Positions 1,934 to 60,146 of a stretch of 64,000 bases of DNA are shown in pieces; the stretch's first letter is position 1; every line of letters starts with the position of its first letter. The notes below the pieces were generated by a model. The model was given only the letters and a program-made list of their open reading frames with translations. It searched no databases and was not told the origin of the DNA. The stretch is from Candidatus Omnitrophota bacterium (GTDB lineage: Bacteria > Omnitrophota > Gorgyraeia > VGKH01): contig JAKLEP010000002.1 in NCBI GenBank assembly GCA_022703055.1, positions 160,480 through 224,479 of the forward strand, read 5' to 3'. The position numbers were made by a program, and so were the translations under genes.

Positions 1934-3941
<2,008 letters not shown>

Positions 3942-36703: not shown

Positions 36704-37714
36704 TTAGGACTTGTATTCTCCGAAAACGCAAACCCGATTTTTCCCCATATTCTTTGCCCGGTAAAGACACCAGTCTGCTTTGTCCAAGAGTTCTTCGACA
36801 GTCTTCGCATCTTCCGGAAATGTGGTTACACCGATGCTAACGGTTACCTTCAATCTCTCATCGTAAGCCTTGATTTCTTTATTATGGATGTTTTCCCTGA
36901 TACGTTCTGCCACAAATTCGGCGCCTTTTTTTGCGGTATCGGTCAAAATAACCAAGAACTCTTCTCCGCCGTACCTCCCTACCAAATCTATCTCTCGGAT
37001 ATTTGACTTAATGCTCCTAGCAACATCCTTTAATACTGCATCTCCAACCAGATGGCCGAATTTGTCGTTATAAGACTTAAAATTATCAACATCCAGCATT
37101 AAAAAAGAAAGGTTCATTTTGTACTTAGCCGATCTTTGCAATTCCTCTGAAAACCTGGCGAAACAGTGCCTGCGAGTATACAGCTTGGTAAGGCTATCAG
37201 TAATGGCTAGTTTTTCTATTTCCTCATATAATTTTATCCTATTAAGGCCCAAAGAAAACTGGTGAGCCAAGACTGAGAACCTATCTTTCTCGCCAGCCGA
37301 AATACCCTTTACAACTAGATATCCGGCTTCCTGCTTATGTGATTTTAACGGAAAAATAAAATAATCCTTATAATCCTTTAGCTTTGAATCGTCAAAGCTA
37401 ATCTGAAGGTCTTGAAAAGCCATATTGTGACTTTCCAGTTTATCTTTAAATATTGTAAATGCCTCCTCTTCTTTCAATGTTTTTGCGATATCCTTGGTAA
37501 TTTCATAAAGCGCAAAAGTGTTTTCTGCCTCTGTCTCAAGTTCATAAATATTTTTGTGCAAAACGGTTGTTTCGGCAAAAAGTTTATCATAAGATAGCTG
37601 CCTTTCGCGTAATTTCTGGCTAGCCGTCGATTCTCTCCCCTTCAATAATGATTGCAGGGAATAAATAGAGAAAAATGTAATAGCCAAAAGTAAAACCCAG
37701 GCTATGAACAGCAT
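36704..37714 (-). CDS. Membrane-anchored diguanylate cyclase (GGDEF), with RxxD I-site
   Basis: N-terminal TM helix, coiled-coil-like linker, and a GGDEF domain with REIDLVGRYGGEEF (RxxD five residues before GGEEF). Confidence 0.85.
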   Translation of the reverse strand: MLFIAWVLLLAITFFSIYSLQSLLKGRESTASQKLRERQLSYDKLFAETTVLHKNIYELETEAENTFALYEITKDIAKTLKEEEAFTIFKDKLESHNMAFQDLQISFDDSKLKDYKDYFIFPLKSHKQEAGYLVVKGISAGEKDRFSVLAHQFSLGLNRIKLYEEIEKLAITDSLTKLYTRRHCFARFSEELQRSAKYKMNLSFLMLDVDNFKSYNDKFGHLVGDAVLKDVARSIKSNIREIDLVGRYGGEEFLVILTDTAKKGAEFVAERIRENIHNKEIKAYDERLKVTVSIGVTTFPEDAKTVEELLDKADWCLYRAKNMGKNRVCVFGEYKS

Positions 37715-38997
37715 ACCTTATCCCTTCCTGAATCTTTAGCTTTAAGAAGCTGCATATCTGCCTTTAATATAAACTCCTCTTTAGTTCGTGCGTCAGAAGG
37801 AAAACTAGCTACCCCCATAGAAACAGTGATGTTGGTTTTTTTCTTGCGCAAGAATATATCAAAGTCTTTGATTTTCTTTCTTAGCTCATCTGCCAGGTGG
37901 ACAGCCTTAGCTTTGGGGATATCGGGCAATAAAACCGCAAACTCTTCGCCTCCGTATCGGCAAACAAGATTTCCCGGTTCAGAAAAAAAGCTGTTTAAAA
38001 TATTGCCTACTGTTTTTAACACAATATCTCCGGCGATGTGGCCGTATTTATCATTATATGATTTAAATTTATCAATATCTAAAATAATCAGGGAGACTTC
38101 CGATTTCTTTCTTACCGCCCTGATAATTTCTTGATTAAGCTGGTGGAAGAAATACCGTCTCAAGTACAAGCTGGTAAGGTCGTCTCTTATTGCCAGCTCC
38201 CTGGTCCGCTGATAAAGCATCGCGTTCTCAAGAGCCATTGCTCCTAGGTCGGAAATAGTGGAGAGAAATCTTAAGTCTTCGGAATTAAAAACTCCCGGAT
38301 GAGGGTTGTCTATCCTCAAAACGCCGAGCATTGTTTTACCGCTAGATAGAGGCGAAGATATCATAGAACGAAAACCCCTTATGTCTTTCTGGGGAATCTT
38401 TTCTAAATCAAAGCGAAAATCTTTCTCGGCATCTTCTATTATTAAAGGCTGCATCTTAACCAAAACCCAGTGATCAAATATGTCCCCAATTTTTGATTTA
38501 ATGGGAGCGCTTTGGTCTTCTTTTTTGGTAGCCAAGATCCCTAGCTCTTTGGATTCCTGGTCGAACAAAAACAAAATACAAACATTGCCTTTTTTATACA
38601 AGAGGTTAAATGCTTCGTTAACAAGGAATCGCGCTATATCATCTAAAACGAGGCTGCTGCCAAGCGTCTCAGTCAGACCTTTAAGAGAATTATATCTTTG
38701 TATTTTATGATTTAAACTTTTGACCAGAGAATTGCTTTGCTTAAAATCATTGGACAGCAGATTTATCTTTTCCTGAAGCTCTTCTTCTTGCAGAGATAAC
38801 ACTTTTTTCTTTTTAACAAGCCCGTGAATAAGACAATAGACAACCACAAGCAGGACCAAGAAAAAACAAGCGAGATATATTAGAGATGAAATATTATATT
38901 TAAGGGAATAAAAAAGAAAAAAAAGAAGGTAGGCTATAAATATGACAAAAGAAGCAATATAATTATTAAATAATCGTTTCCTCTGTGTCTTTATCAA
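37702..38997 (-). CDS. Membrane-anchored GAF-GGDEF diguanylate cyclase, no I-site
   Basis: Two N-terminal TM helices, a GAF-like region (...[40 protein letters not shown]), and a GGDEF domain with [14 protein letters not shown] (no RxxD). TTG start. Confidence 0.8.
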
Positions 38998-47399: not shown

Positions 47400-47415
47400 T
47401 TTCAGGGCAAAAAAA

Positions 47416-47691
47416 TTATTTTTCCATTTCTAAAACAAACTTAATTGCACTAATATTTACATGCCTGTCTTCCATCAAATAATGTATATATTCAAGTTTC
47501 TGAATCTGAACCATTGAATAACAACGCGTCTTTTTGCCAATACGCTTTGGTTTGATTATACCCTTCTTCTCTAATTCACGTAGGGTCCAGACTGGAATAT
47601 GGCAAATCTTGCTGGCAATGCTTATAACATACACCGGCTCGTCAGGATCTATCTGGACTTTCATTTTATTTGCATCTTGCGGCTTATCCAT
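47416..47691 (-). CDS. MerR-family transcriptional regulator, HspR-like
   Basis: 91 aa. VYVISIASKICHIPVWTLRELEKKGIIKPKRIGKKTRCYSMVQIQKLEYIHYL is a MerR-type HTH in the pattern of HspR-like heat-shock repressors. GGGGG SD 5 nt upstream of the ATG. Confidence 0.7.
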   Translation of the reverse strand: MDKPQDANKMKVQIDPDEPVYVISIASKICHIPVWTLRELEKKGIIKPKRIGKKTRCYSMVQIQKLEYIHYLMEDRHVNISAIKFVLEMEK

Positions 47692-47715
47692 TTCAACCCC
47701 CTACTTCCAGATAAA

Positions 47716-47744
47716 AATATAGCATATCTTAATAATATTGTCAA
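47716..47744 (-). promoter_or_regulatory. Sigma-70-type promoter for the HspR-like gene
   Basis: The minus strand reads TTGACA (47744..47739), a 17-nt spacer, then TATATT (47721..47716), about 25 nt upstream of ATG 47691. The dyad ATATCTT-N12-AAGATAT (47724..47749) overlaps the -35 hexamer and spacer. Confidence 0.65.
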
Positions 47745-47787
47745 GATATATTTACAAAAATTATTAGATATTATAACAGTGAATATT

Positions 47788-47827
47788 AAATAAAAGAGCC
47801 GCACTGACTTTCCAGTCAGGGCGGCTC
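47788..47827 (-). terminator. Rho-independent terminator ending the pilin/giant-protein/paralog unit
   Basis: The minus strand reads GAGCCGCCCTGAC-TGGAAA-GTCAGTGCGGCTC followed by TTTTATTT: a 12-bp stem with one mismatch, beginning 50 nt after the stop at 47877. Confidence 0.8.
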
Positions 47828-47876
47828 CTAGACCTAAAATGGTCTATATTACAGCAGAAACTATGTTTATACTATT

Positions 47877-49310
47877 TTACTGTACAAAACACCTACAGGA
47901 TTCGCATTCACTGCAATTAAGCCATGTGCTGCTTGTCTGAATCCAATAATAGTCATAGTTTTGAGCGGATGCGTATCCAGTACATGAAGTACCGACCTTC
48001 TGGGTACAATATGAAGTTGTGTAATTGAAACCTAATAACTTACAGAATTGCTGGCAATCATCGCCGCCGTTATCTCCTCTATAACCAACGATATCATATT
48101 CTCCGCCCGTTCCATCTCGTATATGAGGATTAGATAAATCGACATAAGCTATGCTGCCACTAAATCCTCTAGCGCAATTGGCATATGAGGCTCTTTCATC
48201 TTCGAGCGCAGTGTTGGTCTCGTTTACCCAGACACTTCTAGGAGGACACCAAGCAGGACAATCTGTTCCATCTGCTTTACATAATTTCTTATTATTCTCT
48301 TCTATTGTACCGGTAACATCCAATTTAACATTGGGAGTTGTGTTTCCGATACCCACATTACCACCGTTAATATATGAGGTACCTGCCGGATCAAGTTTAA
48401 TATTTGCCGACATGGTCGGGAATCCGCTACCGATATCAGCATAACTCTTGACAACATCTCCTAATGAAATAGAACCATCCAACCATAAACGATAATTAGA
48501 ACCATATTGGCCATCCGGGCCTAAATACATCATGGTGTATTTAGCGCCGTCATTGACATTCTCATGCGTCCAGCCGAATCCCCAGCCGCTGTTGTCGGCG
48601 ATCAATCTTGAATCGACAACATAAGGATAGATTGCGCCCAGGCGTCCTGATTTGACATAAGTAGTATCAAAAGCGCCAAGCGAAAGAAGGTTGGTTTCAT
48701 AGTTAGAGCCGCCAAGTTGCAATCTAGCCAAAGGACTTGCAGTCCCCACTCCTATTTTATTAGCACCCGGCAAAATTAGGTCTCCTGTTCCTGTCTTTAG
48801 ATACATCAACCAACCAATTTCATCAGGAGAATACCAACCAAAGGCATAATTGACTGATGGCTTGGACATGAACCAATATCTTAATGCAGAAGGAACTTCG
48901 AATTTTAGCTGGTCCATGCTCCTGGTAAGCACCAAGTTATCGGTGAACCGGCCTCCTCCTGTAACATCTAATTTATATGATGGACTGGTTGTTCCAACTC
49001 CCACATTAGAACCAGTCTGATAGACTACAGAATTACCAAGAGTGCTTGTGCCTGTAAATATAGGAAAGTAATTTGTAGTTCCGCTTCCGCCGATTCCTGA
49101 AGCAGCAGAAGTCTGCCAAGTGGCAAGACCGGTAGCATCTGAGGTAAGCACCTTACCGGCACCGGGAGAACCTCCTTTAATCGTTATCTGGCCGTTGACC
49201 GTGACACTTTGCGCGGTTATCGGGCCGTCGACGACTTGCAGTTCGGCGAATGCATTGACATAAAAACCTAAACCTACTACTACGGCTAGCACTATTAGTA
49301 ACTTTTTCAT
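47877..49310 (-). CDS. Secreted fibre-like protein, paralog 2 (variable Cys-rich C-terminal domain)
   Basis: Signal peptide MKKLLIVLAVVVGLGFYVNAFA, ITIKGGSPGAGKVLTSDATGLATWQ, a repeated (N/K)(V/I)G(V/I)G(T/N)(T/A)(S/T)P..(K/R)L(D/Q)(V/L) motif, and a C-terminal 140 aa with 13 Cys; 477 aa. Confidence 0.6.
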   Translation of the reverse strand: MKKLLIVLAVVVGLGFYVNAFAELQVVDGPITAQSVTVNGQITIKGGSPGAGKVLTSDATGLATWQTSAASGIGGSGTTNYFPIFTGTSTLGNSVVYQTGSNVGVGTTSPSYKLDVTGGGRFTDNLVLTRSMDQLKFEVPSALRYWFMSKPSVNYAFGWYSPDEIGWLMYLKTGTGDLILPGANKIGVGTASPLARLQLGGSNYETNLLSLGAFDTTYVKSGRLGAIYPYVVDSRLIADNSGWGFGWTHENVNDGAKYTMMYLGPDGQYGSNYRLWLDGSISLGDVVKSYADIGSGFPTMSANIKLDPAGTSYINGGNVGIGNTTPNVKLDVTGTIEENNKKLCKADGTDCPAWCPPRSVWVNETNTALEDERASYANCARGFSGSIAYVDLSNPHIRDGTGGEYDIVGYRGDNGGDDCQQFCKLLGFNYTTSYCTQKVGTSCTGYASAQNYDYYWIQTSSTWLNCSECESCRCFVQ

Positions 49311-49338
49311 TTTAGTACCTCCATATCTTTTTGCTTAA

Positions 49339-49367
49339 CTTATATCAAATTATTCTAATAATTGCAA
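49339..49367 (-). promoter_or_regulatory. Candidate internal sigma-70-like promoter upstream of paralog 2
   Basis: The minus strand reads TTGCAA, 17 nt, then TATAAG in the 99-nt gap between the paralogs. AT-rich context, so it could be fortuitous. Confidence 0.3.
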
Positions 49368-49409
49368 ATAATTATAAAGACGTTTTGTTTTGTTTTTATT
49401 TATCACCTT

Positions 49410-50870
49410 CTATTGCTTAGTTATCACATCATGATGATAAGCACAACTTGCCGTTTCTCCTCTGCATTGAGTTCCTGAACTATAATACCTTGTAAAATGG
49501 CAGGTTGAGCTAGTTGTAATTTGCCCCTGACAAGTCTCCCCTGGATTTATTCCGCAATAACAATAGTACGTATCATTGCTATTGCATGGGCTATTGCATT
49601 GATAATATTTTGTCATTATGATACTATCACCACTCTTAAGGACATAAGCTCCATTAGACTTGATATCACCATTTACATCAAGCTTAACAGTCGGGCTTGC
49701 TGTCCCTACACCGACATTAGTTGATGTTACTGTCAATGGAGCAGCACCACTACCGGCCTGAACATGCAGTTTCTGACTAGAACTATCCACTCTTAAAACT
49801 GCATCACCGGCTACAGCACTGGTAGAATATTGCCCAGATGCCGCAGCTATAGCTAATCTTGCTTCTGAAGCTGTACGGCCAAGTCCTATGTCCGTACGAC
49901 TTGTGCCGGCTCCGCTGAGCACCGACAATGCTTCAGCATCAGGACTTACTACTGTAAGTTTTTTACTGGGCGCGCTTGTTCCAATGCCTACATTACCTCC
50001 AGTAAAATATGAAGTACCGGCGGGGTCAAGCTTAACCGTCGGTGTCATAGTTGGGAATCCGGTTCCTATATCAGCATAGCTTTTAGCAATATCGCCCAAT
50101 GAAATAGCGCCATCTAACCATAAACGATAATTGGCACCAAATTGGCCATTCGGCCCTAAATACATCATTGAATACTTATCACCCGTAGTAACATTCTCAT
50201 GAGTCCATCCAAACCCCCAGCCGCTTTCATCAGCAATTAATCGTGTGTCTATGACATAGGGATAGATTGCGCCTAAGCGTCCTGCCTTGACATAAGTTGT
50301 ATCAAATCCACCAAGCAGGAGAAGATTATTTTCGTAGTTAGAGTTGCCTAGCTGTAGCTTTCCTAATGGACTGGTGTTACCAACACCGATATTATCGGCA
50401 AAATAATTGGCGGTCCCGCCGTAGCCCCAGCTAAAATATGAGCCAGTATACCAAAGGGCTTCAGCGTCATTAACTCTTAGGGCAACACCCGTTAATCCTT
50501 TATTAAGGTTGAGCGGACCGGCAATATCAAGTTTATAGGCTGGAGAAGTTGTGCCAATACCAACATTGGTTCCGCTCTGATAAACCGCAGAATTTCCTAT
50601 AGAAGTTGTACCGCTAAATATAGGAAAATAATTTGTAGTACCGCTTCCGCCAATACTGCCAGAGGAAGGCGACTGCCAAGTAGCAAGGCCGGTTGAATCC
50701 GAAGTAAGCACCTTGCCGCTACCGGGAGAACCTCCTTTAATCGTTATCTGGCCGTTGACCGTGACACTTGCCGCGGTTATCGGGCCGTCGACAACTTGCA
50801 GTTCGGCGAATGCATTTGCATAAAAACCTAAACCTACTATTACGGCTAGCACTATTAGTAACTTTTTCAT
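49410..50870 (-). CDS. Secreted fibre-like protein, paralog 1 (different Cys-rich C-terminal domain)
   Basis: Signal peptide MKKLLIVLAVIVGLGFYANAFA. The first roughly 60 aa are nearly identical to paralog 2, and it has the same repeated VGIGT.P..KL motif (4 copies). The C-terminal 70 aa contain 10 Cys; 486 aa. Confidence 0.6.
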   Translation of the reverse strand: MKKLLIVLAVIVGLGFYANAFAELQVVDGPITAASVTVNGQITIKGGSPGSGKVLTSDSTGLATWQSPSSGSIGGSGTTNYFPIFSGTTSIGNSAVYQSGTNVGIGTTSPAYKLDIAGPLNLNKGLTGVALRVNDAEALWYTGSYFSWGYGGTANYFADNIGVGNTSPLGKLQLGNSNYENNLLLLGGFDTTYVKAGRLGAIYPYVIDTRLIADESGWGFGWTHENVTTGDKYSMMYLGPNGQFGANYRLWLDGAISLGDIAKSYADIGTGFPTMTPTVKLDPAGTSYFTGGNVGIGTSAPSKKLTVVSPDAEALSVLSGAGTSRTDIGLGRTASEARLAIAAASGQYSTSAVAGDAVLRVDSSSQKLHVQAGSGAAPLTVTSTNVGVGTASPTVKLDVNGDIKSNGAYVLKSGDSIIMTKYYQCNSPCNSNDTYYCYCGINPGETCQGQITTSSTCHFTRYYSSGTQCRGETASCAYHHDVITKQ

Positions 50871-50904
50871 TTTAGTACCTCCTAATTATCATTCTCGCTA
50901 ATAA

Positions 50905-53900
50905 CTAATTTGGACCGCTTGAGCCAGCCTCATTAACCATCCTCATTACTTTGTTGTGGACAACTACATCGTCGGCTATATAGGTATGGTTAGGCTCAAC
51001 CTCCAAATTATATACGTCTACGATAGAATCTTTCGCTTCTATCTTAGTTATCTTCTTTAGTGCTAGCTGTGAATCATCTGAAACCATAATCTTGTCTCCG
51101 ACCTTCAAAGTAGAGGCCTCGACATATTCCTTGCCGTTATATATAGGGTGAATGCCAGTTACATTCAAGGCCCTGCCACCTTCAGTCTCTATGACAAAAT
51201 ATCCTTTCATCATAGGATGAGGGAAGGTTTTGGTTACTTCTGAAGCAACTGTCTTTCCTTCAGGAGTAACGCTTAAGACCTTATCACCAGTCAAGACTTT
51301 CTCAATGGCCTTGGATGTTCCGTCTGCCATAGCAATCTTAGTCCCTGGCAATAAGCATCCTCCGCCGCCTCCACCTGTGGAGTGACGGATAATGTTCGTA
51401 TTCACAAAAGTTGTCATACCAGTTCCAGATACATATACCGCATCAGATAAAGAATCTGTCGCTCTGTTGCGATAGATTTCTGTCCCGGAAATAGTCGTTG
51501 CCTTATTAGAGTTAATATAGATACCGCCGCCCTTACTTGTCGAGCCGTTAGCGACGTTATCTTCAATATCGCAGTTTTCAATGTTAACCGGCGCATTATC
51601 AACTACAATACCACCGCCGTTGCCGGATGTCAATCCGTAAGAGATACCAAAACCTCTAAAAGTAACAAGATTGGTCGCGGCTGCAAAATTGACCACCGGC
51701 GTGGTTAGCGCTTGGCTTTGGCCGCTGATAATTGTATCGTTTGGATTAGCAGATGTACTCTCAACGGTTAATGCCTTATTTCTATTGAAAGTGATCCTTT
51801 CATTATAGATTCCCGGAGCAGCGGTAATCCTGAAATTATTATCCAGGGATGCATAATTAAGCGCCTCTGTTATAGTATTGTAACATGCAACGCAAACTGA
51901 AGAAGCGTTATAGACCTTTACAGGATTGTTGCACCCGGTAACGTTAATATTGACCGTCGCTGTGTTGCTCCACAAAGGTGTAGTGCAGGCATTGCTAACC
52001 CTGTAAGTGAAACTATCAGCCCCTATGTATCCAGCTGTTGGTGTATAGGTGAAGCTACCATTAACAGACAAGGAAAGCGTACCATGCAAAGGATCGCTCA
52101 TTTTCTGCACGCTTCCAAAAGCCCAAGTAGGAGCTTCAGGATTAACATCGTTTATGACAACTCCATTAGAGAAGGTCACTGTTAAAGTGCTATTTTGTGT
52201 AGCGGTATAACTATCATTGACTGCCACTGGTGGATCATCGCAACGCTGGGAAATACTAAGCCTAACCAACGTCACATTACCTTGTGTTCCGCTACCGCAA
52301 TCGCTTACTGGCCTGTAGGTAAACGTATCTTCACCATACCAGTTAGCGCTCGGTACATAAGTAAACGAACCTGGGCCGTATGTATTCATTGTCAATGTTC
52401 CATGGCTAGGACCAGTTACTAAAACTGCTGATGCAGGTTCGCCTCCACCATTATTTGGATCGATATCATTATCCAGTAAGGTAGGCGCATACCCACCAAG
52501 AGACATATCTTCTGCCCCATAATAGTGATCTTCAACGCCTGTCGGAAGTTGGCAGCTATTGACAGTTAAATAAACTGTAGCTACGTTGCTGTATAAGTTA
52601 TTGCAACTGCTGCGCGCCCTGTAAGTGAAGCTATCACTACCGGTATAACCCGTTGTTGGCGTATAAGTGAATGAACCGTTGGTATTCAAAGTCACTGTTC
52701 CATGGGATGGGTCACTATACTTATAAGCAGTTAACGTAACTCCGCCATCAACGCTATAATCATTGGCTAATACACCGGGAGCGGCTACGGTATAAGCAGT
52801 ATTAATCATAACATCGCTGTAGGTATCATTCACTGCTACTGGGTTATCGCAGGCCTTAGCTACAGAGATGTTGCGGCTGACTGTATTGGAATTTACGCAT
52901 CCATCGGTTACTGTGAAGCTGACTGTGCGAGTGGCTGTCGATGGATCCTCCGAGGTATTCCTGTATCTTACTGAACGTAGCGCAAGTTGATAGTTGGCAA
53001 CTGTTGCGCTTCCGGATAGTGTCATGGTTCCAGTGGTTGAGTTCCAGCTACCGGTTATGCCGTTAGCTGTAGTGTATTCTAGAAGATCCTGGTTGCTAGT
53101 ATAATTGGCGGTAATCTGGACCGTGCCGCCAGTTAAATTCGTACTATCAGCATCTGTTACGGTTATGGTGCTAGAAATAACTGTCGCTGACTGGTTCTCG
53201 GTATAGCTTAAAGTACTGGTTTCAATATTAGCTAATACCGGAGCGTCACAGACAGATGCGATAGTAATGTTACGAGTTACTGTATTGGAATCCACACATC
53301 CATCATTAACCTTGAATGTGACTGTACGTGTGGCTGTCGATGGATTCTCCGAGGTATTCCTATATGTTACCGCGCGTAGCGCAAGTTGATAGTTGGCTAA
53401 TGTTGCGCTGCCGGTTAATGTCATGGTACCGGTGGTTGAGTTCCAGCTACCGGTTATGCCGCTGACGCCTGGGAATGCCAGGACATCTTGGCTACTGGCA
53501 TAATTGCTGGTAATCTGGACTGTACCCCCGGTTAAGTTGGTACTGTCTGTATCCGTTACTGTTATACTACCAGTAATCGCTGTAGCTGCTTGATTCTCAG
53601 TGTAAGCCAACGCAGCAGTCTCAATATTAGCTAAGACTGGAGGACTGCAAACCGTACCCACGTTGATATTACGTGTGGCTGTATTGGAATCTAACCCGCC
53701 ATCATTTACTTTGAAACTCACTGTGCGTTGCAAAGTTGATGGATTAGCGGAGGTATTCCTATATGTTACCGCGCGTAGCGCAAGTTGATAGTTGGCAACT
53801 GAAGAGCTGCCGGTTAATGTCATGGTACCGGTGGATGAGTTCCAGCTACCGGTTATGCCGCTGACGCCTGGGAATGCCAGGATATCTTCAGCGCTGGCAT

Positions 53901-56900
53901 AATTGCCGGTGATCTGGACTGTGCCGCCGGCCAAGTTAGTACTGTCAACATCTGTAACTGTGATAGTCGAAGTAATTGCTGTAGCTGCCTGGCCTTCATC
54001 ATAACTTAAAGCACTGGTCTCGATGTTAGCCAAGACTGGTGCATCAGGAACAGATGTTAAACTTATAGCTCTGCTGACCGTGTTAGAACTCACGCATCCA
54101 TCAGTTACTGTAAAGCTGACTGTTCGTTGCAGAGTTGATGGATTCTCCGAAGTATTCCTATATGTCACTGAGCGTAACGCGAGTTGATAGTTGGCTAATG
54201 TTGCGCTACCGGTTAATGTCATGGTACCGGTGGATGAGTTCCAGCTACCGGTTATGCCGCTGGCTGCGGTAAAGGCTAAGACATCTTCAGCGCTGGCATA
54301 ATTGCCGGTGATCTGGATTGTACCGCCGGTTAAATTGGCACTATCAACATCTGAAATAGTAATAGCCGAAGTGATAGCTGTAGCTGCTTGATTCTCAGTG
54401 TAAGCTAATGCGGAAGTCTCAATATTAGCTAATACTGGAGCATCACAAACAGATGTGATAGTAATGTTACGAGTTACTGTATTGGAATTCACACATCCAT
54501 CAGTTACTGTAAAGCTGACTGTTCGTTGCAGAGTTGATGGATTCTCCGAAGTATTCCTATATGTCACTGAGCGTAACGCAGTCTGATAATTAGCTAACGT
54601 TGCGCTACCGGTTAGTGTCATGGTACCGGTGGATGAATTCCAGCTACCGGTTATGCCGCTGACGCCTGGGAATGCTAAGACATCTTCAGCGCTGGCATAA
54701 TTGCCGGTGATCTGGACTGTGCCTCCGGTTAAGTTGGTGCTATCTGTATCTGTTACGGTTATAGCACCAGTAATTGCCGTAGCTGCCTGATTCTCGGTAT
54801 AAGCCAATGCTGAAGTTTCGATATTGGCTAATGCAGGGGCATTGCAGACAGGTGTTATAGTGATATTGCGTGTAACCGTGTTAGAATTCACGCATCCATC
54901 ATTCACTGTGAAACTTACTGTGCGTTGTAAAGTTGATGGGTTAGATGAAGTATTCCTATATGTTACCGCGCGTAGCGCAGCCTGATAGTTGGCTAATGTT
55001 GCGCTGCCGGTTAATGTCATGGTACCGGTGGATGAGTTCCAGCTACCGGTTATGCCGCTGACGCCTGGAAATGCCAGGACATCTTCAGCGCTGGCATAAT
55101 TGCCGGTGATCTGGACTGTGCCTCCGGTTAAGTTGGTGCTGTCAACATCTGTAACTGTGATAGCGCTGGTAATCGCTGTAGCTGCCTGGCCTTCAGTATA
55201 ACCTAAAGCACTGGTCTCGATGTTGGCTAAGACTGGTGCGTCGCAGACAGCTCCCACTGTGATGTTGCGTGTAACTGTATTAGAATCCACGCATCCATCA
55301 TTAACCTTGAATGTAACTGTACGCTGCAAGGTTGATGGATTATCCGAAGTATTCCTATATGTCACTGCGCGTAGCGCAGTCTGATAGGTAGCCAATGTTG
55401 CGCTGCCGGATAGTGTCATGGTTCCGGTGGATGAGTTCCAGCTACCGGTTATGCCGCTGACACCTGGGAATGCCAGGACATCTTCCGCGCTGGCATAATT
55501 GCCGGTGATCTGGACTGTGCCACCTGCTAAACTAGTACTATCAACATCGGAAATTGTTATATTGCTGGTAACCGCTGTGGCTGATTGATTCTCAGTGTAA
55601 GCCAATGCAGCAGTCTCAATATTAGCTAAGACTGGAGCATCGCAAACAGCTCCTATAGTTATACCACGAGATACTGTATTAGAAGATAAAGCACCATCAG
55701 TTACTGTAAAGCTGACTGTTCGTTGCAGAGTTGATGGATTCTCCGAAGTATTCCTATATGTTACCGCGCGTAGCGCAAGTTGATAGTTGGCAACTGTTGC
55801 GCTGCCGGTTAATGTCATGGTACCGGTGGTTGAGTTCCAGCTACCGGTTATGCCGCTGACGCCTGGAAATGCCAGGACATCTTGGCTGCTAGCATAATTG
55901 CCGGTGATTTGGACTGTACCGCCTGCCAAATTGGTGCTGTCGGCATCTGTAACCGTTATGGTACCAGTGATTGCCGTAGCTGCCTGATTCTCAGTGTAAG
56001 CCAATGCAGCGGTCTCAATATTAGCTAATACTGGAGCATTACCAACTGCACCCACGTTTATATTACGAGTTGCTATGTTAGAATTCAAAGCACCATCATT
56101 TACCCTAAAGCTTACTGTGCGCTGCAAAGTTGATGGTGTGGCTGAAGTATTCCTGTAAGTTACTGTACGTAACGCAGCCTGATAGTTGGCAACTGAAGAA
56201 CTGCCGGTTAGTGTCATAGTTCCGGTAGATGAATTCCAGCTACCGGTTATACCGCTGGCAGCTGTGAATTCAAGAAGATCCTCACCGCTGGCATAATTGC
56301 CAGTAATCTGGACTGTACCGCTAGCTAAGTTAGCGCTATCAACATCTGTGGCGGTCATTGTCGTGGTAATAGCTATTGCCGGCTGGCCTTCCGTGTAGCT
56401 TAAAGCGCTGGTCTCAATGTTGGCCAAGACTGGCGCATCAGGTACCGGTTGAACGGTAATCGATGTGGTAGCCGTATTGCTAATTCTACTGGTACTATCA
56501 ATAATATTATAGGTGAAACTATCTCCGCCGTTGTAGTCAGCCGCTGGAGAATATCTGATGGTAAGATTCCCAGTATTTATAGTTGCGGTTCCGTGAGAAG
56601 GCGCACTAACAATACTGTTAATGGTTATAGTATCTCCAGTATCGGGATCGTAGTCATTATTCATAACCGAGAGATTTGTAGGCGTATCTTCATTAACTGA
56701 TAAGCTGTCATTGACCGCTACTGGCGCATCTGGCATGGCATTAAGATTAACCGTTACTGTGGCTGAATTGCTTATCAAATGTGAAGTACTGGAATCTTGA
56801 ATTCTATAGGTAAAGGTATCTGTGGTCCCGTCAAAGTCAGGGTTGGGAACATAATGCAAAGCATCTATAATCTGAGTAACTGTGCCATTTGCCGGTTGAG

Positions 56901-59496
56901 TAAAATCGTAAATGGCAATAGTGTCTCCTGAGTCGGGATCGTAATCAACTCCAAAACCATTATCTAACAAAACAGAAATATCTATAGGGACATCTTCGTC
57001 GGTTGTCGCGGTATCATCTCTTGCCACCGGATTATCAGGAACCGGACTAACTACTAACATTACTTGCGCAAAACCACTGCAAGCACCATAAGTATCGCAT
57101 GCCCTGTAAGTAAAGTAATCCGTGCTGCTGAAATTAGGATTTGGCGTATAAGTAAAAGAACCATCAGCGCCAAACGTGTTTAAGGTTCCGTAACTTGGGC
57201 CAGTTGCACCCGTTCTATCTGCATGTATTGGGTCTCCGTCCGGATCAGAATCATCACTCAATACTCCGGGGGCAGCAACTGTTCTAGGTGTATCCTCAGT
57301 AAGAAAATAACTGTTGTTATTTGCCACAGGAGGATTGTTAGCAGTCACAGTAATCGCAACGTTTAATTTGGCGCTATGCAATCCGTAATAATCAGTAGCG
57401 ATAAAAGTAACGGTGTAAGAACCGGTCGCTGATGGTGTCCAGCTAAAGCTTCCGGTATCTGTGGCATCGTTAAAATTAAAAGTTGCTCCACTGGGTAAAT
57501 TAAATGCACTGATATCAGTCACGTTCAAAGGAGCAACGCCAGTATCTACGCCCGTGACGGTGAAAGTTAAAGTTTCGCCGACACGTTTTGAAAAAGGCCC
57601 AGCTGGGCTGGAACTGATAGTCGGTATACCTCTATCTGCTCTAAGATAAGTACCTGTATTCTTTAAGTTTTGTCTAAATTTCGGCCAAGGCATAGTTGTA
57701 GACGGAGTGGATAAATCCCATATATGGGCGTTTCCGCTCAAGTCTGCAATAGCGGCTCTAAACAAAGTTGTACTCCCCAATGCCCCAACGCTTGGTGAAG
57801 ATAATTCTATTGTCCCCATTCCCGTCTTTGGGAAACCATCAACTGGATCAGCTACGCCATAAGGTGTATCTTGATCATCATGATGATAACCATAGAGATT
57901 GCCATCCCAGCATCCTATGAGCACTTCAACGTCGCCGTCATTGTCAATATCCACCAATGCTGGAGATGAATCATATGCGGTCGACATAGTAACACTGGTC
58001 CTGTCTACCGGCCATCCAACGACTGTAGTACCGTCATGATGCAAAGCATAGACTCCGCCATCAGATGTGCCTGCGACCAATTCAAGATCTTGATTATATT
58101 CTTCAAGGCCTGTTGTGCCATAAAGCGCTAAATTTCCTATAGCAACTGAAGAGGTTGATGCAGCGCTGGTGCCTCCTAATCTCTTAGGCCAACCTAAACC
58201 TGTACCACTCGGCCAGGCTTCAACATAAGTAGCATCTTGATTCAAAGCGTACATATGCGCCGTGCTTGTTACGACAGCGACTTCCAGAATTCCATCGCCA
58301 TCAACATCCGCTAACGCAGGAGAAGAGTTAAAATATCCCTGGCCAGCGGGACGGTCAAAGAATCTACCGTCTGAATTTAGATAACCTACAAAATTTGTCC
58401 CATTATATCTCCATGCGCATAATCTAGTGGAATGTGCGGTTATGATTTCAGGGTAACCGGTTCCGCCAATATTTCCAACCGCAGGAGAAGAGTTGACGAT
58501 ACTGGGATAACCAAAAATAGAACCAATACGTGCCCCGGCATAATTCCAAATGTTGACACCGCCGTTGGTGCCTACTGCGATGATCTCAAGATTGGTATCG
58601 TTGTTGACGTCTTCAAGCACTACAGAGTTATCGATGGAATCATTTGCGGCGCCAGTACTATCCAAGGCCTGAATTGGGAATCCAGTGACAGGATCGGCTA
58701 AGCCATCGCTATTGAGATCCTGCGCATGCCAGACATAGACTTTGCCGTTGGTATTTCCAACCACTACTTCCATGATACTGCCGTCTTTATCCAAATCGGC
58801 TATCGCAGGAGTACCTTTAACAGAAATACCAGCTTCTGTCTGGGCGAATAAACCATTGGATTGAGATGGGAAGAAGCTTCCCCATGTCCCACCGCTATAA
58901 TTCCAAGCATAGATATCGCCGTTATCATCGGCAAAAATCAGCTCTCCTTCAGGATCGGTATCTAAATTGACAATGACTGGCGAAGAATGAATAGGATAAA
59001 CCGGAGATCCGATACTCAATAAACTCATCCCGCCCGGCAAATCTGGTGTTTCATCCGGAAGGCTCCCCTTATAAAGATATGGCTCTCCTGTCTCTTTAAT
59101 CCTGAACCCTATATTGGTGCCTTTGATGTCAGCCTGGCCTAAAAACTCAGGGTTATCCCCTGCTTTGTAATCGACATAGGCTTCATTGAGGCTTACGCCC
59201 AAGGCGGTGTTTATCTGGCTTATGCCGTTAGCAAAGAAATATTTACTGTGGCTGGGGAAATAATCAGCTATTTGGCCTGTCTGAATCTCTGCAAGGCCGG
59301 CCTTGGCCATATCGATTTTCTCTTCTAATGTCGGCTCACTACTACCTCCGCCGCCGCCCCCGTCGCCATCTGCAATCATAAAATTCATCTCGGCTGAGAC
59401 GGGAGCTAAGGCTAAACTCCAACACATCAAGATAACTAGTGGCCGGATTAAGTAAACATGAAACCAGCTTTTTCTATCTTTGATTAGCTTTTTCAT
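50905..59496 (-). CDS. Giant secreted multi-domain adhesin-like protein (2863 aa): FG-GAP/VCBS-type beta-propeller, Ig/cadherin-like domains, 9 x 133-aa repeats, parallel beta-helix, C-terminal Hint/BIL domain
   Basis: AAGGAG SD and an N-terminal hydrophobic signal-like segment. D-x-D/N-x-D-G loops (DLDKDG, DVNNDTNLE, DVDGDGILE, DIDNDGDVE) and WPKFRQNLKNTG fit a propeller. Repeated P-V-A-x-(N/D)-D...SFTYTP units are cadherin/Ig-like. GGGI..D/GGGIYINS beta-helix rungs precede GGGGGGCLLPGT...VVVHN. Confidence 0.85.
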   Translation of the reverse strand: MKKLIKDRKSWFHVYLIRPLVILMCWSLALAPVSAEMNFMIADGDGGGGGGSSEPTLEEKIDMAKAGLAEIQTGQIADYFPSHSKYFFANGISQINTALGVSLNEAYVDYKAGDNPEFLGQADIKGTNIGFRIKETGEPYLYKGSLPDETPDLPGGMSLLSIGSPVYPIHSSPVIVNLDTDPEGELIFADDNGDIYAWNYSGGTWGSFFPSQSNGLFAQTEAGISVKGTPAIADLDKDGSIMEVVVGNTNGKVYVWHAQDLNSDGLADPVTGFPIQALDSTGAANDSIDNSVVLEDVNNDTNLEIIAVGTNGGVNIWNYAGARIGSIFGYPSIVNSSPAVGNIGGTGYPEIITAHSTRLCAWRYNGTNFVGYLNSDGRFFDRPAGQGYFNSSPALADVDGDGILEVAVVTSTAHMYALNQDATYVEAWPSGTGLGWPKRLGGTSAASTSSVAIGNLALYGTTGLEEYNQDLELVAGTSDGGVYALHHDGTTVVGWPVDRTSVTMSTAYDSSPALVDIDNDGDVEVLIGCWDGNLYGYHHDDQDTPYGVADPVDGFPKTGMGTIELSSPSVGALGSTTLFRAAIADLSGNAHIWDLSTPSTTMPWPKFRQNLKNTGTYLRADRGIPTISSSPAGPFSKRVGETLTFTVTGVDTGVAPLNVTDISAFNLPSGATFNFNDATDTGSFSWTPSATGSYTVTFIATDYYGLHSAKLNVAITVTANNPPVANNNSYFLTEDTPRTVAAPGVLSDDSDPDGDPIHADRTGATGPSYGTLNTFGADGSFTYTPNPNFSSTDYFTYRACDTYGACSGFAQVMLVVSPVPDNPVARDDTATTDEDVPIDISVLLDNGFGVDYDPDSGDTIAIYDFTQPANGTVTQIIDALHYVPNPDFDGTTDTFTYRIQDSSTSHLISNSATVTVNLNAMPDAPVAVNDSLSVNEDTPTNLSVMNNDYDPDTGDTITINSIVSAPSHGTATINTGNLTIRYSPAADYNGGDSFTYNIIDSTSRISNTATTSITVQPVPDAPVLANIETSALSYTEGQPAIAITTTMTATDVDSANLASGTVQITGNYASGEDLLEFTAASGITGSWNSSTGTMTLTGSSSVANYQAALRTVTYRNTSATPSTLQRTVSFRVNDGALNSNIATRNINVGAVGNAPVLANIETAALAYTENQAATAITGTITVTDADSTNLAGGTVQITGNYASSQDVLAFPGVSGITGSWNSTTGTMTLTGSATVANYQLALRAVTYRNTSENPSTLQRTVSFTVTDGALSSNTVSRGITIGAVCDAPVLANIETAALAYTENQSATAVTSNITISDVDSTSLAGGTVQITGNYASAEDVLAFPGVSGITGSWNSSTGTMTLSGSATLATYQTALRAVTYRNTSDNPSTLQRTVTFKVNDGCVDSNTVTRNITVGAVCDAPVLANIETSALGYTEGQAATAITSAITVTDVDSTNLTGGTVQITGNYASAEDVLAFPGVSGITGSWNSSTGTMTLTGSATLANYQAALRAVTYRNTSSNPSTLQRTVSFTVNDGCVNSNTVTRNITITPVCNAPALANIETSALAYTENQAATAITGAITVTDTDSTNLTGGTVQITGNYASAEDVLAFPGVSGITGSWNSSTGTMTLTGSATLANYQTALRSVTYRNTSENPSTLQRTVSFTVTDGCVNSNTVTRNITITSVCDAPVLANIETSALAYTENQAATAITSAITISDVDSANLTGGTIQITGNYASAEDVLAFTAASGITGSWNSSTGTMTLTGSATLANYQLALRSVTYRNTSENPSTLQRTVSFTVTDGCVSSNTVSRAISLTSVPDAPVLANIETSALSYDEGQAATAITSTITVTDVDSTNLAGGTVQITGNYASAEDILAFPGVSGITGSWNSSTGTMTLTGSSSVANYQLALRAVTYRNTSANPSTLQRTVSFKVNDGGLDSNTATRNINVGTVCSPPVLANIETAALAYTENQAATAITGSITVTDTDSTNLTGGTVQITSNYASSQDVLAFPGVSGITGSWNSTTGTMTLTGSATLANYQLALRAVTYRNTSENPSTATRTVTFKVNDGCVDSNTVTRNITIASVCDAPVLANIETSTLSYTENQSATVISSTITVTDADSTNLTGGTVQITANYTSNQDLLEYTTANGITGSWNSTTGTMTLSGSATVANYQLALRSVRYRNTSEDPSTATRTVSFTVTDGCVNSNTVSRNISVAKACDNPVAVNDTYSDVMINTAYTVAAPGVLANDYSVDGGVTLTAYKYSDPSHGTVTLNTNGSFTYTPTTGYTGSDSFTYRARSSCNNLYSNVATVYLTVNSCQLPTGVEDHYYGAEDMSLGGYAPTLLDNDIDPNNGGGEPASAVLVTGPSHGTLTMNTYGPGSFTYVPSANWYGEDTFTYRPVSDCGSGTQGNVTLVRLSISQRCDDPPVAVNDSYTATQNSTLTVTFSNGVVINDVNPEAPTWAFGSVQKMSDPLHGTLSLSVNGSFTYTPTAGYIGADSFTYRVSNACTTPLWSNTATVNINVTGCNNPVKVYNASSVCVACYNTITEALNYASLDNNFRITAAPGIYNERITFNRNKALTVESTSANPNDTIISGQSQALTTPVVNFAAATNLVTFRGFGISYGLTSGNGGGIVVDNAPVNIENCDIEDNVANGSTSKGGGIYINSNKATTISGTEIYRNRATDSLSDAVYVSGTGMTTFVNTNIIRHSTGGGGGGCLLPGTKIAMADGTSKAIEKVLTGDKVLSVTPEGKTVASEVTKTFPHPMMKGYFVIETEGGRALNVTGIHPIYNGKEYVEASTLKVGDKIMVSDDSQLALKKITKIEAKDSIVDVYNLEVEPNHTYIADDVVVHNKVMRMVNEAGSSGPN
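50953..51357 (-). other. Hint (Hedgehog/intein) domain, bacterial intein-like (BIL) type, aa 2714-2848 of the giant protein
   Basis: CLLPGTKIAMADGT (block A, Cys1), NVTGIHPIY (block B, T-x-x-H), VYNLEVEPNHTYIADDVVVHN (blocks F/G ending in HN). It is followed by Lys and only 15 further residues. Confidence 0.8.
51376..51927 (-). other. Parallel beta-helix (pectate-lyase-like) region of the giant protein, aa 2524-2707
   Basis: Periodic rungs: ITAAPGIYNERITF, LTVES...DTIISG, GGGIVVDNAPVNIENCDIEDN, GGGIYINSNKATTISGTEIYRN. Confidence 0.55.
52849..56436 (-). repeat. Nine head-to-tail copies of a 399-bp (133-aa) coding repeat inside the giant gene (aa 1021-2217)
   Basis: Each unit begins APVLANIETxAL(A/S)YTE(N/G)Q and ends ...SNT(V/A)(T/S)RNI(T/S/N)xxx(V/A)C(D/N/S). 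Long nucleotide strings, for example gttccagctaccggttatgccgct and ggtaccggtggatgagtt, recur at 399-bp spacing. Confidence 0.9.
57652..59004 (-). other. FG-GAP/VCBS-like beta-propeller region of the giant protein, about aa 165-615
   Basis: Recurrent hydrophobic-strand plus Asp/Asn-rich Ca-binding-like loops (ADLDKDG, EDVNNDTNLE, ADVDGDGILE, VDIDNDGDVE) alternating with aromatic-Gly turns (GKVYVW, GGVNIW, GNLYGY, NAHIWD). Confidence 0.6.
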
Positions 59497-59535
59497 TTTC
59501 TCTTCTCCTTCTTAGAAAATGGTTTTTTTATCAGT

Positions 59536-59949
59536 CTAATATTTACATCCTACCGGCGAAGAACAATAAGGTTCGCCATCCTTAACGCTCAAGTAACCTT
59601 CGACTTGAATAGTCATGGCTGGAGTCTTCTTATAAACAGCTTTCCCAAGATATGCTGGACTAGCCGAAGGATTATCTGCAACACTATAATCCCAACTTCT
59701 TTCATTCAAATCTAAGAAAAGATCAGTGTTGATTGCATTTATATCTGTAGTATATAAATGATAAGTGCCATTTCTTAAGTTATAAACTTTTTGCGCTGCA
59801 TATATGGCCCGAAGGCTGCTTTTTGCTTCGCTGACATCGGCCCTTACAACAACATCTTTATATACTGGCACTGCGATACCGACAGAAACTCCCAGTATCA
59901 CAACAACCACTATCAACTCCATCAATGTTATTGCATTTCTCTTTTTCAT
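59536..59949 (-). CDS. Type IV pilin / pseudopilin-like protein (prepilin-type N-terminal domain)
   Basis: MKKRNA/ITLMELIVVVVILGVSVGIAVP: a basic leader, Glu at +5 and a hydrophobic alpha1-N helix. The C-terminal CSSPVGC is a possible disulfide loop. Start is set at Met14 of the track ORF (ATG 59949); the track start 59988 would add an MILIIMNEMKEKI extension. Confidence 0.7.
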   Translation of the reverse strand: MKKRNAITLMELIVVVVILGVSVGIAVPVYKDVVVRADVSEAKSSLRAIYAAQKVYNLRNGTYHLYTTDINAINTDLFLDLNERSWDYSVADNPSASPAYLGKAVYKKTPAMTIQVEGYLSVKDGEPYCSSPVGCKY

Positions 59950-59990
59950 TATCTTTTCTTTCATTTCATTCATTATTATTAATATCATTC

Positions 59991-60030
59991 AACAAAAAAT
60001 CCAGACCATAGCTTTCAAGCGTACGTCTGG
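59991..60030 (-). terminator. Intrinsic terminator forming the riboswitch expression platform
   Basis: The minus strand reads CCAGACGTACGCTTGAAAGCTATGGTCTGG (outer 6-bp CCAGAC/GTCTGG stem plus inner TA and GC pairs) followed directly by ATTTTTTGTT. It lies between the aptamer and the pilin start. Confidence 0.6.
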
Positions 60031-60054
60031 ATTTCTCCATTCAAAACTTAACCT

Positions 60055-60146
60055 CGTTATCGGTACGCTCGGCTGCCATGGAATTACTTCTTTAGGCCCG
60101 AAACTTTGCGCCCCCGTCTTTCGACGGGTTTGCCCCCGCCATAAAC
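60055..60146 (-). promoter_or_regulatory. c-di-GMP-I (GEMM-I) riboswitch aptamer
   Basis: The minus strand reads GTTTATGGCGGGGGCAAACCCGTCGAAAGACGGGGGCGCAAAGTTTCGGGCCTAAAGAAGTAATTCCATGGCAGCCGAGCGTACCGATAACG. It matches the Vc2-type core GGGCAAACC-N4-GAAA-N4-GGGACGCAAAGCC..CGGCCTAAA....TACCGA, including the P2 GNRA hairpin CCGTC-GAAA-GACGG. It forms a GC-rich island in an AT-rich 476-nt gap. Confidence 0.85.

Follow-up and report, generated by a model that had tools for sequence, protein, structure and literature searches.

Here we report that a giant gene in a 64,000-nucleotide stretch of Candidatus Omnitrophota DNA (contig JAKLEP010000002.1, referred to below as the window) encodes an adhesin-like protein whose residues 2714-2848 are a Hint domain with intact catalytic residues, followed by a tail of only 15 residues and a stop codon. 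The domain appears to belong to the lineage of type A bacterial intein-like (BIL) and PT-HINT domains and to form within it a distinct clade with (Gly)n|Cys1 ... His-Asn|Lys junctions. The most likely reading, which we hold with moderate confidence, is that the Hint domain is a self-removing C-terminal module that acts by plain cleavage or by a short Lys-capped splice. In Omnitrophota and neighbouring phyla, we propose that members of the clade serve as self-removing modules on adhesin-like giants, proteases, and pilin-like proteins.

The terminal Hint domain

The giant gene is the sole long open reading frame (ORF) covering the Hint region, on the minus strand. Its product ends ...HSTGGGGGG|CLLPGTKIAMADGT...NVTGIHPIY...VYNLEVEPNHTYIADDVVVHN|KVMRMVNEAGSSGPN*, and the domain and tail together contain one cysteine only, Cys2714. 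The relevant features, in window coordinates, are as follows.

50905..59496, minus: giant gene, 2863 aa, with an AAGGAG ribosome-binding site ahead of its ATG
51358..51375, minus: Gly6 linker, Gly2708-Gly2713, whose last residue, Gly2713, lies at -1 to the bond predicted to be cut
50953..51357, minus: Hint domain, Cys2714-Asn2848, delimited by profile, structure-model and alignment evidence
51357-51355, minus: Cys1 (Cys2714), the block A nucleophile
Within the Hint domain: block B, T2780-G-I-H2783
Within the Hint domain: block F, VYNLEV...HTY, residues 2828-2839
50953-50958, minus: block G, His2847-Asn2848, with Asn2848 at 50955-50953
50908..50952, minus: 15-aa tail, Lys2849-Asn2863, KVMRMVNEAGSSGPN; in relatives only Lys2849 (+1) is conserved
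50907-50905, minus: stop codon TAG

The identity of the domain as a Hint fold is far beyond chance because profile, sequence, and structure comparisons all lead to it. PT-HINT (PF07591) is the best Pfam model for the region (58.2 bits, E=1.4e-15, cut-off 27.7), and both Intein_splicing (41.1 bits) and Hint (40.2 bits) score above their cut-offs, as do the TIGR models intein_Nterm (32.1 bits) and intein_Cterm (TIGR01443; 23.7 bits, cut-off 15.6). Among solved structures, the top sequence match is PDB 2LWY, a Clostridium thermocellum 'bacterial intein-like domain' (E=1.2e-13) that shares the VYN motif of block F and was reportedly determined by Aranko et al. in 2013. An AlphaFold2 model of the Hint domain, built from an alignment of 27 related domains, reached a pLDDT of 95.6 and a pTM of 0.89, and a Foldseek search with this model matched the RecA and DnaB mini-inteins, BIL2, 2LWY, and Hedgehog 1AT0 at TM-scores of 0.86-0.92, with E-values down to 9e-12.

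The domain was originally predicted from the letters of the sequence alone, and most of that prediction has stood. The quoted C-terminal sequence was correct, and the interval 50905-51357 runs exactly from Cys2714 through the stop codon. Intein blocks A, B, F, and G, which had been called recognisable, were recovered by profiles, fold, and residue mapping; a homing endonuclease is indeed lacking, and so is any C-extein beyond the 15 residues. A hidden Markov model comparison with Hint families, named beforehand as the check, upheld the Hint fold by the three Pfam models above. The BIL-type reading agrees with the nearest solved relative by sequence, an A-type BIL domain, and the predicted departure from the polymorphic-toxin arrangement of PT-HINT also holds, as there is no toxin payload even though the PT-HINT model scores best. 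Three points are corrected or added. The +1 residue is Lys and not Cys, Ser, or Thr, as predicted, but it is no incidental 'non-nucleophilic' residue, being a conserved hallmark of the clade. Splicing is ruled out by the canonical route and not altogether, since A-type BIL domains can splice when a freed amine attacks the thioester (PMC4031507). A Hint domain does terminate this adhesin, and the same arrangement recurs on many exported and type IV pilin-like proteins. Lastly, the strand of the gene is the minus strand.

A hidden extension of the protein by read-through or frameshifting was considered and rejected. A second in-frame stop lies 10 codons past the TAG, and the next gene, which starts 35 bp downstream, is served by an AGGAGG ribosome-binding site and a signal peptide of its own, so that no further C-terminal domain is concealed there.

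Related domains, their carriers, and their class

An exhaustive HMMER search of representative proteins returned 12,799 proteins at E<1e-3, many of the relatives being metagenomic fragments, and conservation was read from the best 150 of these, which hold 310 complete domains; a homologue search of the word-indexed type, run on the final 181 aa, brought up 5 matches only. In this set Cys1 is present in 302 of the 310 domains (97%), the terminal His-Asn in 293 (95%), Lys+1 in 232 (75%), and Gly-1 in 192 (62%), and many relatives carry poly-Gly ahead of Cys1. In a 27-sequence alignment of terminal domains (A1), Cys1, the block B His, and His-Asn are invariant, and the block B Thr is nearly so.

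The terminal position is likewise a recurrent property. Thirty-seven of the 150 relatives end 2-22 aa past His-Asn, 24 of them with a single Hint domain, and none of the 37 stops exactly at His-Asn; therefore, the peptide bond after Asn is always kept. The retention of His-Asn, which is never followed by fewer than two residues, argues that both junctions are under selection, and the conservation of Lys+1 suggests a specific role for this residue as a nucleophile or catalytic aid. The terminal architecture was confirmed at true stop codons in genome contigs, and its occurrence in many genomes rules out an assembly artefact. Terminal domains also cluster together: the nearest neighbour of a terminal domain is itself terminal in 25 of 38 cases (terminal domains make up 12% of the set), and the window Hint domain has a mean identity of 42.5% to terminal domains versus 34-35% to tandem ones.

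Besides the terminal architecture, a tandem one dominates the set (P0006-P0024 and others; L019 7470-10544). Behind a signal peptide it has 2-5 Hint domains with HN|KGGGG|C as the linkers between them; a stretch rich in Gly and Ser comes next, then a hydrophobic segment, and then a Tim44-like domain (PF04280). Cutting at every junction would set free KGGGG peptides and leave a membrane protein whose N-terminus is Lys-Gly4; we can only speculate that these proteins might supply 'KGGGG...' amine acceptors for terminal-Hint donors.

Alignment A1 was too diverse for a scan of genomes, which was run with an alignment of 5 sequences instead; across its matches the +1 residue changes in a graded manner. 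Close matches have Lys+1 and short tails and come from Omnitrophota, some Planctomycetota, Patescibacteria, Eisenbacteria, and Bdellovibrionales. Farther away, at lower scores, lie classic PT-HINT toxins of Clostridia and Myxococcota with a variable +1 residue and toxin tails of 90-200 aa. The farthest matches, at far lower scores, are true inteins with +1 Cys in enzymes such as ribonucleotide reductase. Some close relatives of the window domain are inserted inside RHS/YD-repeat toxin-like proteins (P0100, P0130; L015 1845-10082), and the sequence past His-Asn in P0100 and P0130 (KLPMRMFNDTGSGD...) weakly resembles the window tail (KVMRMVNEAGSSG). The window tail may thus be a remnant of a longer C-extein, or an element shared with one.

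The carriers are extracytoplasmic proteins with Sec or prepilin signals; among them are pilins, an S8 subtilase, and a C1 protease that also has a beta-helix, as well as proteins with beta-helix, FG-GAP, cadherin-like, dockerin, or collagen-binding domains. A prepilin or Flp-like N-terminal signal was found in 11 of the 37 terminal-Hint proteins versus 1 of 117 others. Pilin-Hint genes stand among other pilin-like genes at five Omnitrophota loci (L006, L007, L009, L013, L014), and one single-cell genome holds at least six terminal-Hint ORFs (three in L008, two in L011, and one in L012). Three carrier genes illustrate the range.

L010, 1697-10254: S8 subtilase with I9 propeptide and terminal Hint domain, between gspE and gspF-gspG
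L013, 970-8444: pilin-Hint gene, with gspE, gspF and a pilin gene a few kb upstream
L012: papain-family (C1) protease with beta-helix and terminal Hint domain

The module would thus behave like a C-terminal tag that many exported proteins share. Its link to type IV filament systems is notable and consists in co-occurrence, and the pilin-like gene just upstream of the giant gene repeats it on a small scale in the window.

To assign the domain to a class, we compared it with the described Hint systems. The general properties of the superfamily are all present: the Hint fold, Cys at position 1, and Thr-x-x-His in block B. A canonical class 1 intein is set apart by its +1 residue, which is Cys in the true inteins of the genome scan and Lys2849 here; moreover, 15 unconserved residues follow the domain, and the host is a hypervariable surface protein rather than a conserved enzyme site. 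The true intein is therefore rejected for its Lys+1 and missing extein. A B-type BIL domain is ruled out as well, because His-Asn is present and the Hint_2 model reaches 23.0 bits against a cut-off of 28.4. As judged from its sequence, the domain agrees with every testable property of type A: His2847-Asn2848 at block G, no Cys, Ser, or Thr nucleophile at +1, and a place in a variable region of a secreted, adhesin-like bacterial protein, to which the VYN motif shared with 2LWY can be added. Unlike the BIL-A domains in the papers searched, the window domain lies at the very C-terminal end, ahead of a 15-aa tail that is not conserved, and its clade has a conserved Lys+1 and Gly-1 or poly-Gly and is tied to type IV pilin-like proteins and to clusters of type II secretion system (T2SS) and type IV pilus (T4P) genes in Omnitrophota. 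According to published work, type A BIL domains have His-Asn and no +1 nucleophile, and most of their products arise from N- and C-cleavage; splicing is also possible for them if the amine that Asn cyclisation sets free goes on to attack the thioester at the N-terminal junction (PMC4031507; PMC7664689).

PT-HINT domains (PF07591; Zhang et al. 2012, PMC3482391) share the best Pfam model and are autoproteolytic Hint domains in filamentous proteins exported by Sec or T2SS. They differ in that they sit just ahead of a C-terminal toxin that is followed by immunity genes. In the window, the 15-aa tail and the TAG stand where the toxin domain would be, and instead of immunity genes or cassettes two signal-peptide paralogues of about 480 aa lie downstream, with a counterpart at a syntenic locus. 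Hedgehog proteins (Hog; PDB 1AT0, TM-score 0.88) resemble the window protein in their C-terminal Hint domain and thioester cleavage at Gly|Cys, which leaves a modified or free C-terminal Gly; they carry out the first step only, passing the N-terminal domain to cholesterol (PMC7664689). Past its Hint core, however, a Hedgehog protein has a sterol-recognition region and no terminal Asn cyclisation, whereas the window domain has the conserved His-Asn, only 15 residues after the core, and no adduct recognition region. The BIL2 domain of BUBL proteins (PDB 6Y75/6TMM) is among the top three structural matches of the window model; it is a BIL domain flanked by ubiquitin-like (Ubl) domains in a cytosolic eukaryotic polyprotein, while the window domain follows a giant secreted N-extein, has no C-extein domain, and has no flanking Ubl domain in a Pfam scan of the giant protein. 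A BUBL-like relative, P0118, is present elsewhere among the homologue matches.

Several sorting systems of exported proteins, namely the type IX secretion system (T9SS) C-terminal domain, LPXTG/sortase, GlyGly-CTERM/rhombosortase, and PEP-CTERM, use removable C-terminal modules that need a separate processing enzyme. By analogy, the terminal Hint clade may be likened to these as a removable C-terminal module on many unrelated exported proteins within one genome; it is not homologous to them and would be self-catalytic.

The giant protein and its locus

According to profile scans and sequence reading, the giant protein begins with a Sec signal peptide, a Gly6 run, and an FG-GAP region, which lead into cadherin-like, tandem-95, and Big_9 repeats. 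Next come nine 133-aa repeats, more cadherin-like repeats, a beta-helix-like region, and the second Gly6 run, followed by the Hint domain and tail. The period of the 133-aa repeats was taken from the positions of LANIET between residues 1024 and 2088. NCBIfam profiles show a weak similarity of the passenger to rhombotarget A, and an exact-sequence lookup found no record of the giant protein.

Two observations concern this passenger. The 133-aa repeats (52100-56500, minus) are near-regular and give weak matches to Calsyntenin_C, NEAT, and other unrelated Pfam models; over this region the GC content is 0.47, against about 0.40 elsewhere in the window, and the sign of the GC skew flips. One Gly6 run follows the predicted signal-peptide cleavage (59340-59390, minus, ADGDGGGGGGSS), and the other precedes Cys1 of the Hint domain (51358-51375, minus). 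It is pure conjecture that such flexible Gly stretches, one at either mature end, would lend themselves to head-to-tail ligation.

The remaining features of the locus are listed below.

60059..60144, minus: cyclic di-GMP-I (c-di-GMP-I) riboswitch aptamer, Rfam RF01051, 66.8 bits (gathering 35), E=7e-11, full-length match
59990..60037, minus: terminator-like hairpin with a 13-bp stem and U6, fold -20.5 kcal/mol, z=-3.2 versus shuffles
59536..59988, minus: type IV pilin/pseudopilin-like gene, MKKRNA|ITLMELIVVVVILG..., Pfam N_methyl 22.9 bits (cut-off 21.2)
59392..59496, minus: predicted Sec signal peptide of the giant protein, residues 1-35 (...LALAPVSA|EMN), cleavage site judged by eye; then ADGDGGGGGGSS
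49410..50870, minus: 486-aa signal-peptide protein of no known family, paralogue of the next gene, with a counterpart in L004
47877..49310, minus: 477-aa paralogue with signal peptide and Cys-rich C-terminus

The pilin-like gene stops 39 bp upstream of the giant gene; its ComP_DUS match is below cut-off, as are NCBIfam matches to PilA and the GspG N-terminus (E~1e-10). The hairpin between the aptamer and the first gene is a candidate expression platform. A promoter scan found none that was convincing for the operon, and it also missed the long-loop hairpin after the riboswitch. The two downstream paralogues gave nothing usable in Pfam, NCBIfam, or PDB sequence searches; both (47877-50870, minus) contain repeated 'GNVGIGTTSPxxKLDVxG' motifs and Cys-rich C-termini. 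As an operon placed behind a c-di-GMP riboswitch, the pilin-like gene, the giant gene, and the two surface-protein paralogues fit a regulated surface or adhesion structure. Past the paralogues lie the genes of MerR, HrcA, GrpE, DnaK, and DnaJ, and elsewhere in the window there are housekeeping genes, a cluster for polysaccharide synthesis, and GGDEF genes. Two of the latter, encoding diguanylate cyclases, lie about 20 kb from the riboswitch (36704-38997, minus).

The nearest genomic relatives of the Hint domain are found in Candidatus Omnitrophota genomes. A locus of one Omnitrophota metagenome-assembled genome, L004, is syntenic with the window: it has an adhesin ending in a Hint domain and a 15-aa tail, a 499-aa paralogue (2281-3780), MerR, HrcA, GrpE, DnaK, and DnaJ. 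The compared proteins diverge to very different degrees.

Flanking HrcA, GrpE, DnaK, DnaJ and MerR: 90-98% aa identity
Hint domain: 62% aa identity
Passenger: 43% aa identity
Downstream protein: about 35% aa identity
Tail: Lys+1 alone in common

The identity of the flanks shows that the window derives from a close relative of the L004 genome. The surface-protein locus at 47400-59500 is, by these comparisons, hypervariable, which fits the published link of BIL domains to variable secreted proteins. JGI metagenome contigs of the same strain, matched by GrpE, break just before the giant gene, and L001 begins inside the 477-aa gene.

Mechanism, alternatives, and implications

We infer the chemical steps of self-removal and their timing from the fold, catalytic residues, conservation, architecture, export signals, and neighbourhood described above. 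The precursor would be exported via Sec, and the Hint domain would fold outside the cytoplasm. Cys2714 would then attack the carbonyl of Gly2713 in an N-to-S acyl shift to form a thioester, and cyclisation of Asn2848 would sever the 15-residue tail. The thioester could be resolved by water or by the freed amine of Lys2849, either alpha or epsilon, in an aminolysis of the BIL-A type. As a result, the Hint domain would be gone from the passenger of roughly 2680 residues, whose C-terminus would be either free poly-Gly or capped by a short Lys-peptide.

Some points weigh against this account. Simple self-removal leaves the benefit of carrying the domain unexplained, and the conservation of Lys+1, together with the enrichment on pilins and in T2SS/T4P-type clusters, hints at an outcome more specific than hydrolysis. 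Apart from the pilin-like gene, no genes of T2SS or T4P machinery are present in the window. The higher identity of the Hint domain (62%) than of the passenger (43%) would be only weak evidence of purifying selection, because the flanks are 90-98% identical while the adhesin is at 43%, so that orthology is not clean.

The alternative that comes next, a possible one that we nevertheless consider improbable, is thioester transfer of the Hedgehog, BUBL, or sortase kind. Here the Gly2713~Cys2714 thioester would be resolved by an external amine or hydroxyl, for which a Lys or the N-terminus of the co-encoded pilin-like protein or of another surface protein, an envelope lipid or glycan, or the host-cell surface would be candidates, and the passenger would become covalently anchored or polymerised outside the cell without ATP. 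A precedent exists in Tetrahymena BUBL BIL2, also a top structural match, which was reported to join its N-extein to lysines by an isopeptide bond (PMC8616854). The enrichment on type IV pilin-like proteins, clade members inside clusters of GspE/GspF/GspG and minor-pilin genes, and the pilin-like gene next to the giant gene also speak for transfer; the poly-Gly linkers and Gly-1 recall other C-terminal conjugation sites, and the many paralogous carriers per genome resemble a sorting tag. However, the tails of 2-22 aa are unconserved and leave no adduct-recognition region as in Hedgehog, no acceptor was identified, and the pilin association is one of co-occurrence. Nor would pure transfer need the Asn and the bond that follows it, as Hedgehog does without them. 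More speculative still is the idea, to which we give rather little credence, that the terminal Hint clade acts outside the cell as a ligation tag, complete in itself and in no need of ATP, whose thioester joins the C-terminal Gly of adhesins, proteases, and pilin-like subunits to an amine; this amine could come from a pilus subunit, an envelope component, or a host-cell surface.

Three further explanations carry less weight. The Hint domain might stay attached without catalysis and serve at the C-terminus either for binding or as a folded signal for recognition or secretion, as the T9SS C-terminal domain does. Its place at the extreme C-terminus of diverse cargo-like exoproteins (S8 subtilase, C1 protease, beta-helix, cadherin-like, and dockerin-bearing) and the carrier gene between gspE and gspF would suit such a role, which we still judge unlikely: pure binding would not need Cys1, the block B His, and His-Asn, which are kept in 95-97% of domains, and pilin-type carriers require no cargo signal. 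That the domain is a decayed polymorphic toxin, a former PT-HINT whose toxin was cut to a 15-aa stub, would agree with the best Pfam model and with the RHS-type toxins P0100 and P0130, whose post-Hint sequence is like the window tail. We rejected this candidate as very unlikely, given the recurrence of short tails in 37 of 150 relatives, pilins and proteases among them, and the two large signal-peptide paralogues that occupy the downstream region here and at the syntenic locus, with no immunity-like gene; the genuine PT-HINT toxins of the genome scan, moreover, differ in +1 residue, tail length, and score. Canonical splicing by a true (mini-)intein is close to impossible. The TIGR intein models pass their cut-offs and the fold matches mini-inteins, but the sequence itself contradicts this reading, with its Lys+1, no functional C-extein, and a variable secreted host, and the true inteins of the scan have +1 Cys and far lower scores.

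The domain itself is of a known kind: since 2003, BIL domains have been on record from secreted proteins of the adhesin-like type, and they are said to have been reported by Amitai et al. in 2003 and Dassa et al. in 2004. In the open-access literature searched for Hint domains or inteins together with Omnitrophota, pilins, or type II secretion, we found no description of the present arrangement. What appears to be undescribed there is that the arrangement is strictly terminal, that its signature is (Gly)n|Cys...His-Asn|Lys, and that it has spread over pilins and exoproteins beside T2SS/T4P-type genes in Omnitrophota.

The purpose of BIL domains has been an open question since their description in 2003, and the clade offers an unusually clean test case, because a single Hint domain sits at the protein end, entered at a conserved Gly|Cys and left at a conserved Asn|Lys, and because some carriers are small pilin-like proteins, such as P0087 and P0112 of about 270 aa, that should be easy to express. 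Should self-removal be all that the domain does, it adds one more to the autoprocessed pro-domains and could still serve as a self-cleaving tag. If it is a ligation tag, it would give Omnitrophota and allied ultra-small bacteria a Hint-based functional counterpart of thioester-domain adhesins or of sorting by sortase or rhombosortase. If thioester transfer takes place, it would represent a new enzyme-free route to build or anchor surface structures, and would matter for the question of how Omnitrophota that depend on hosts become attached to their partners.

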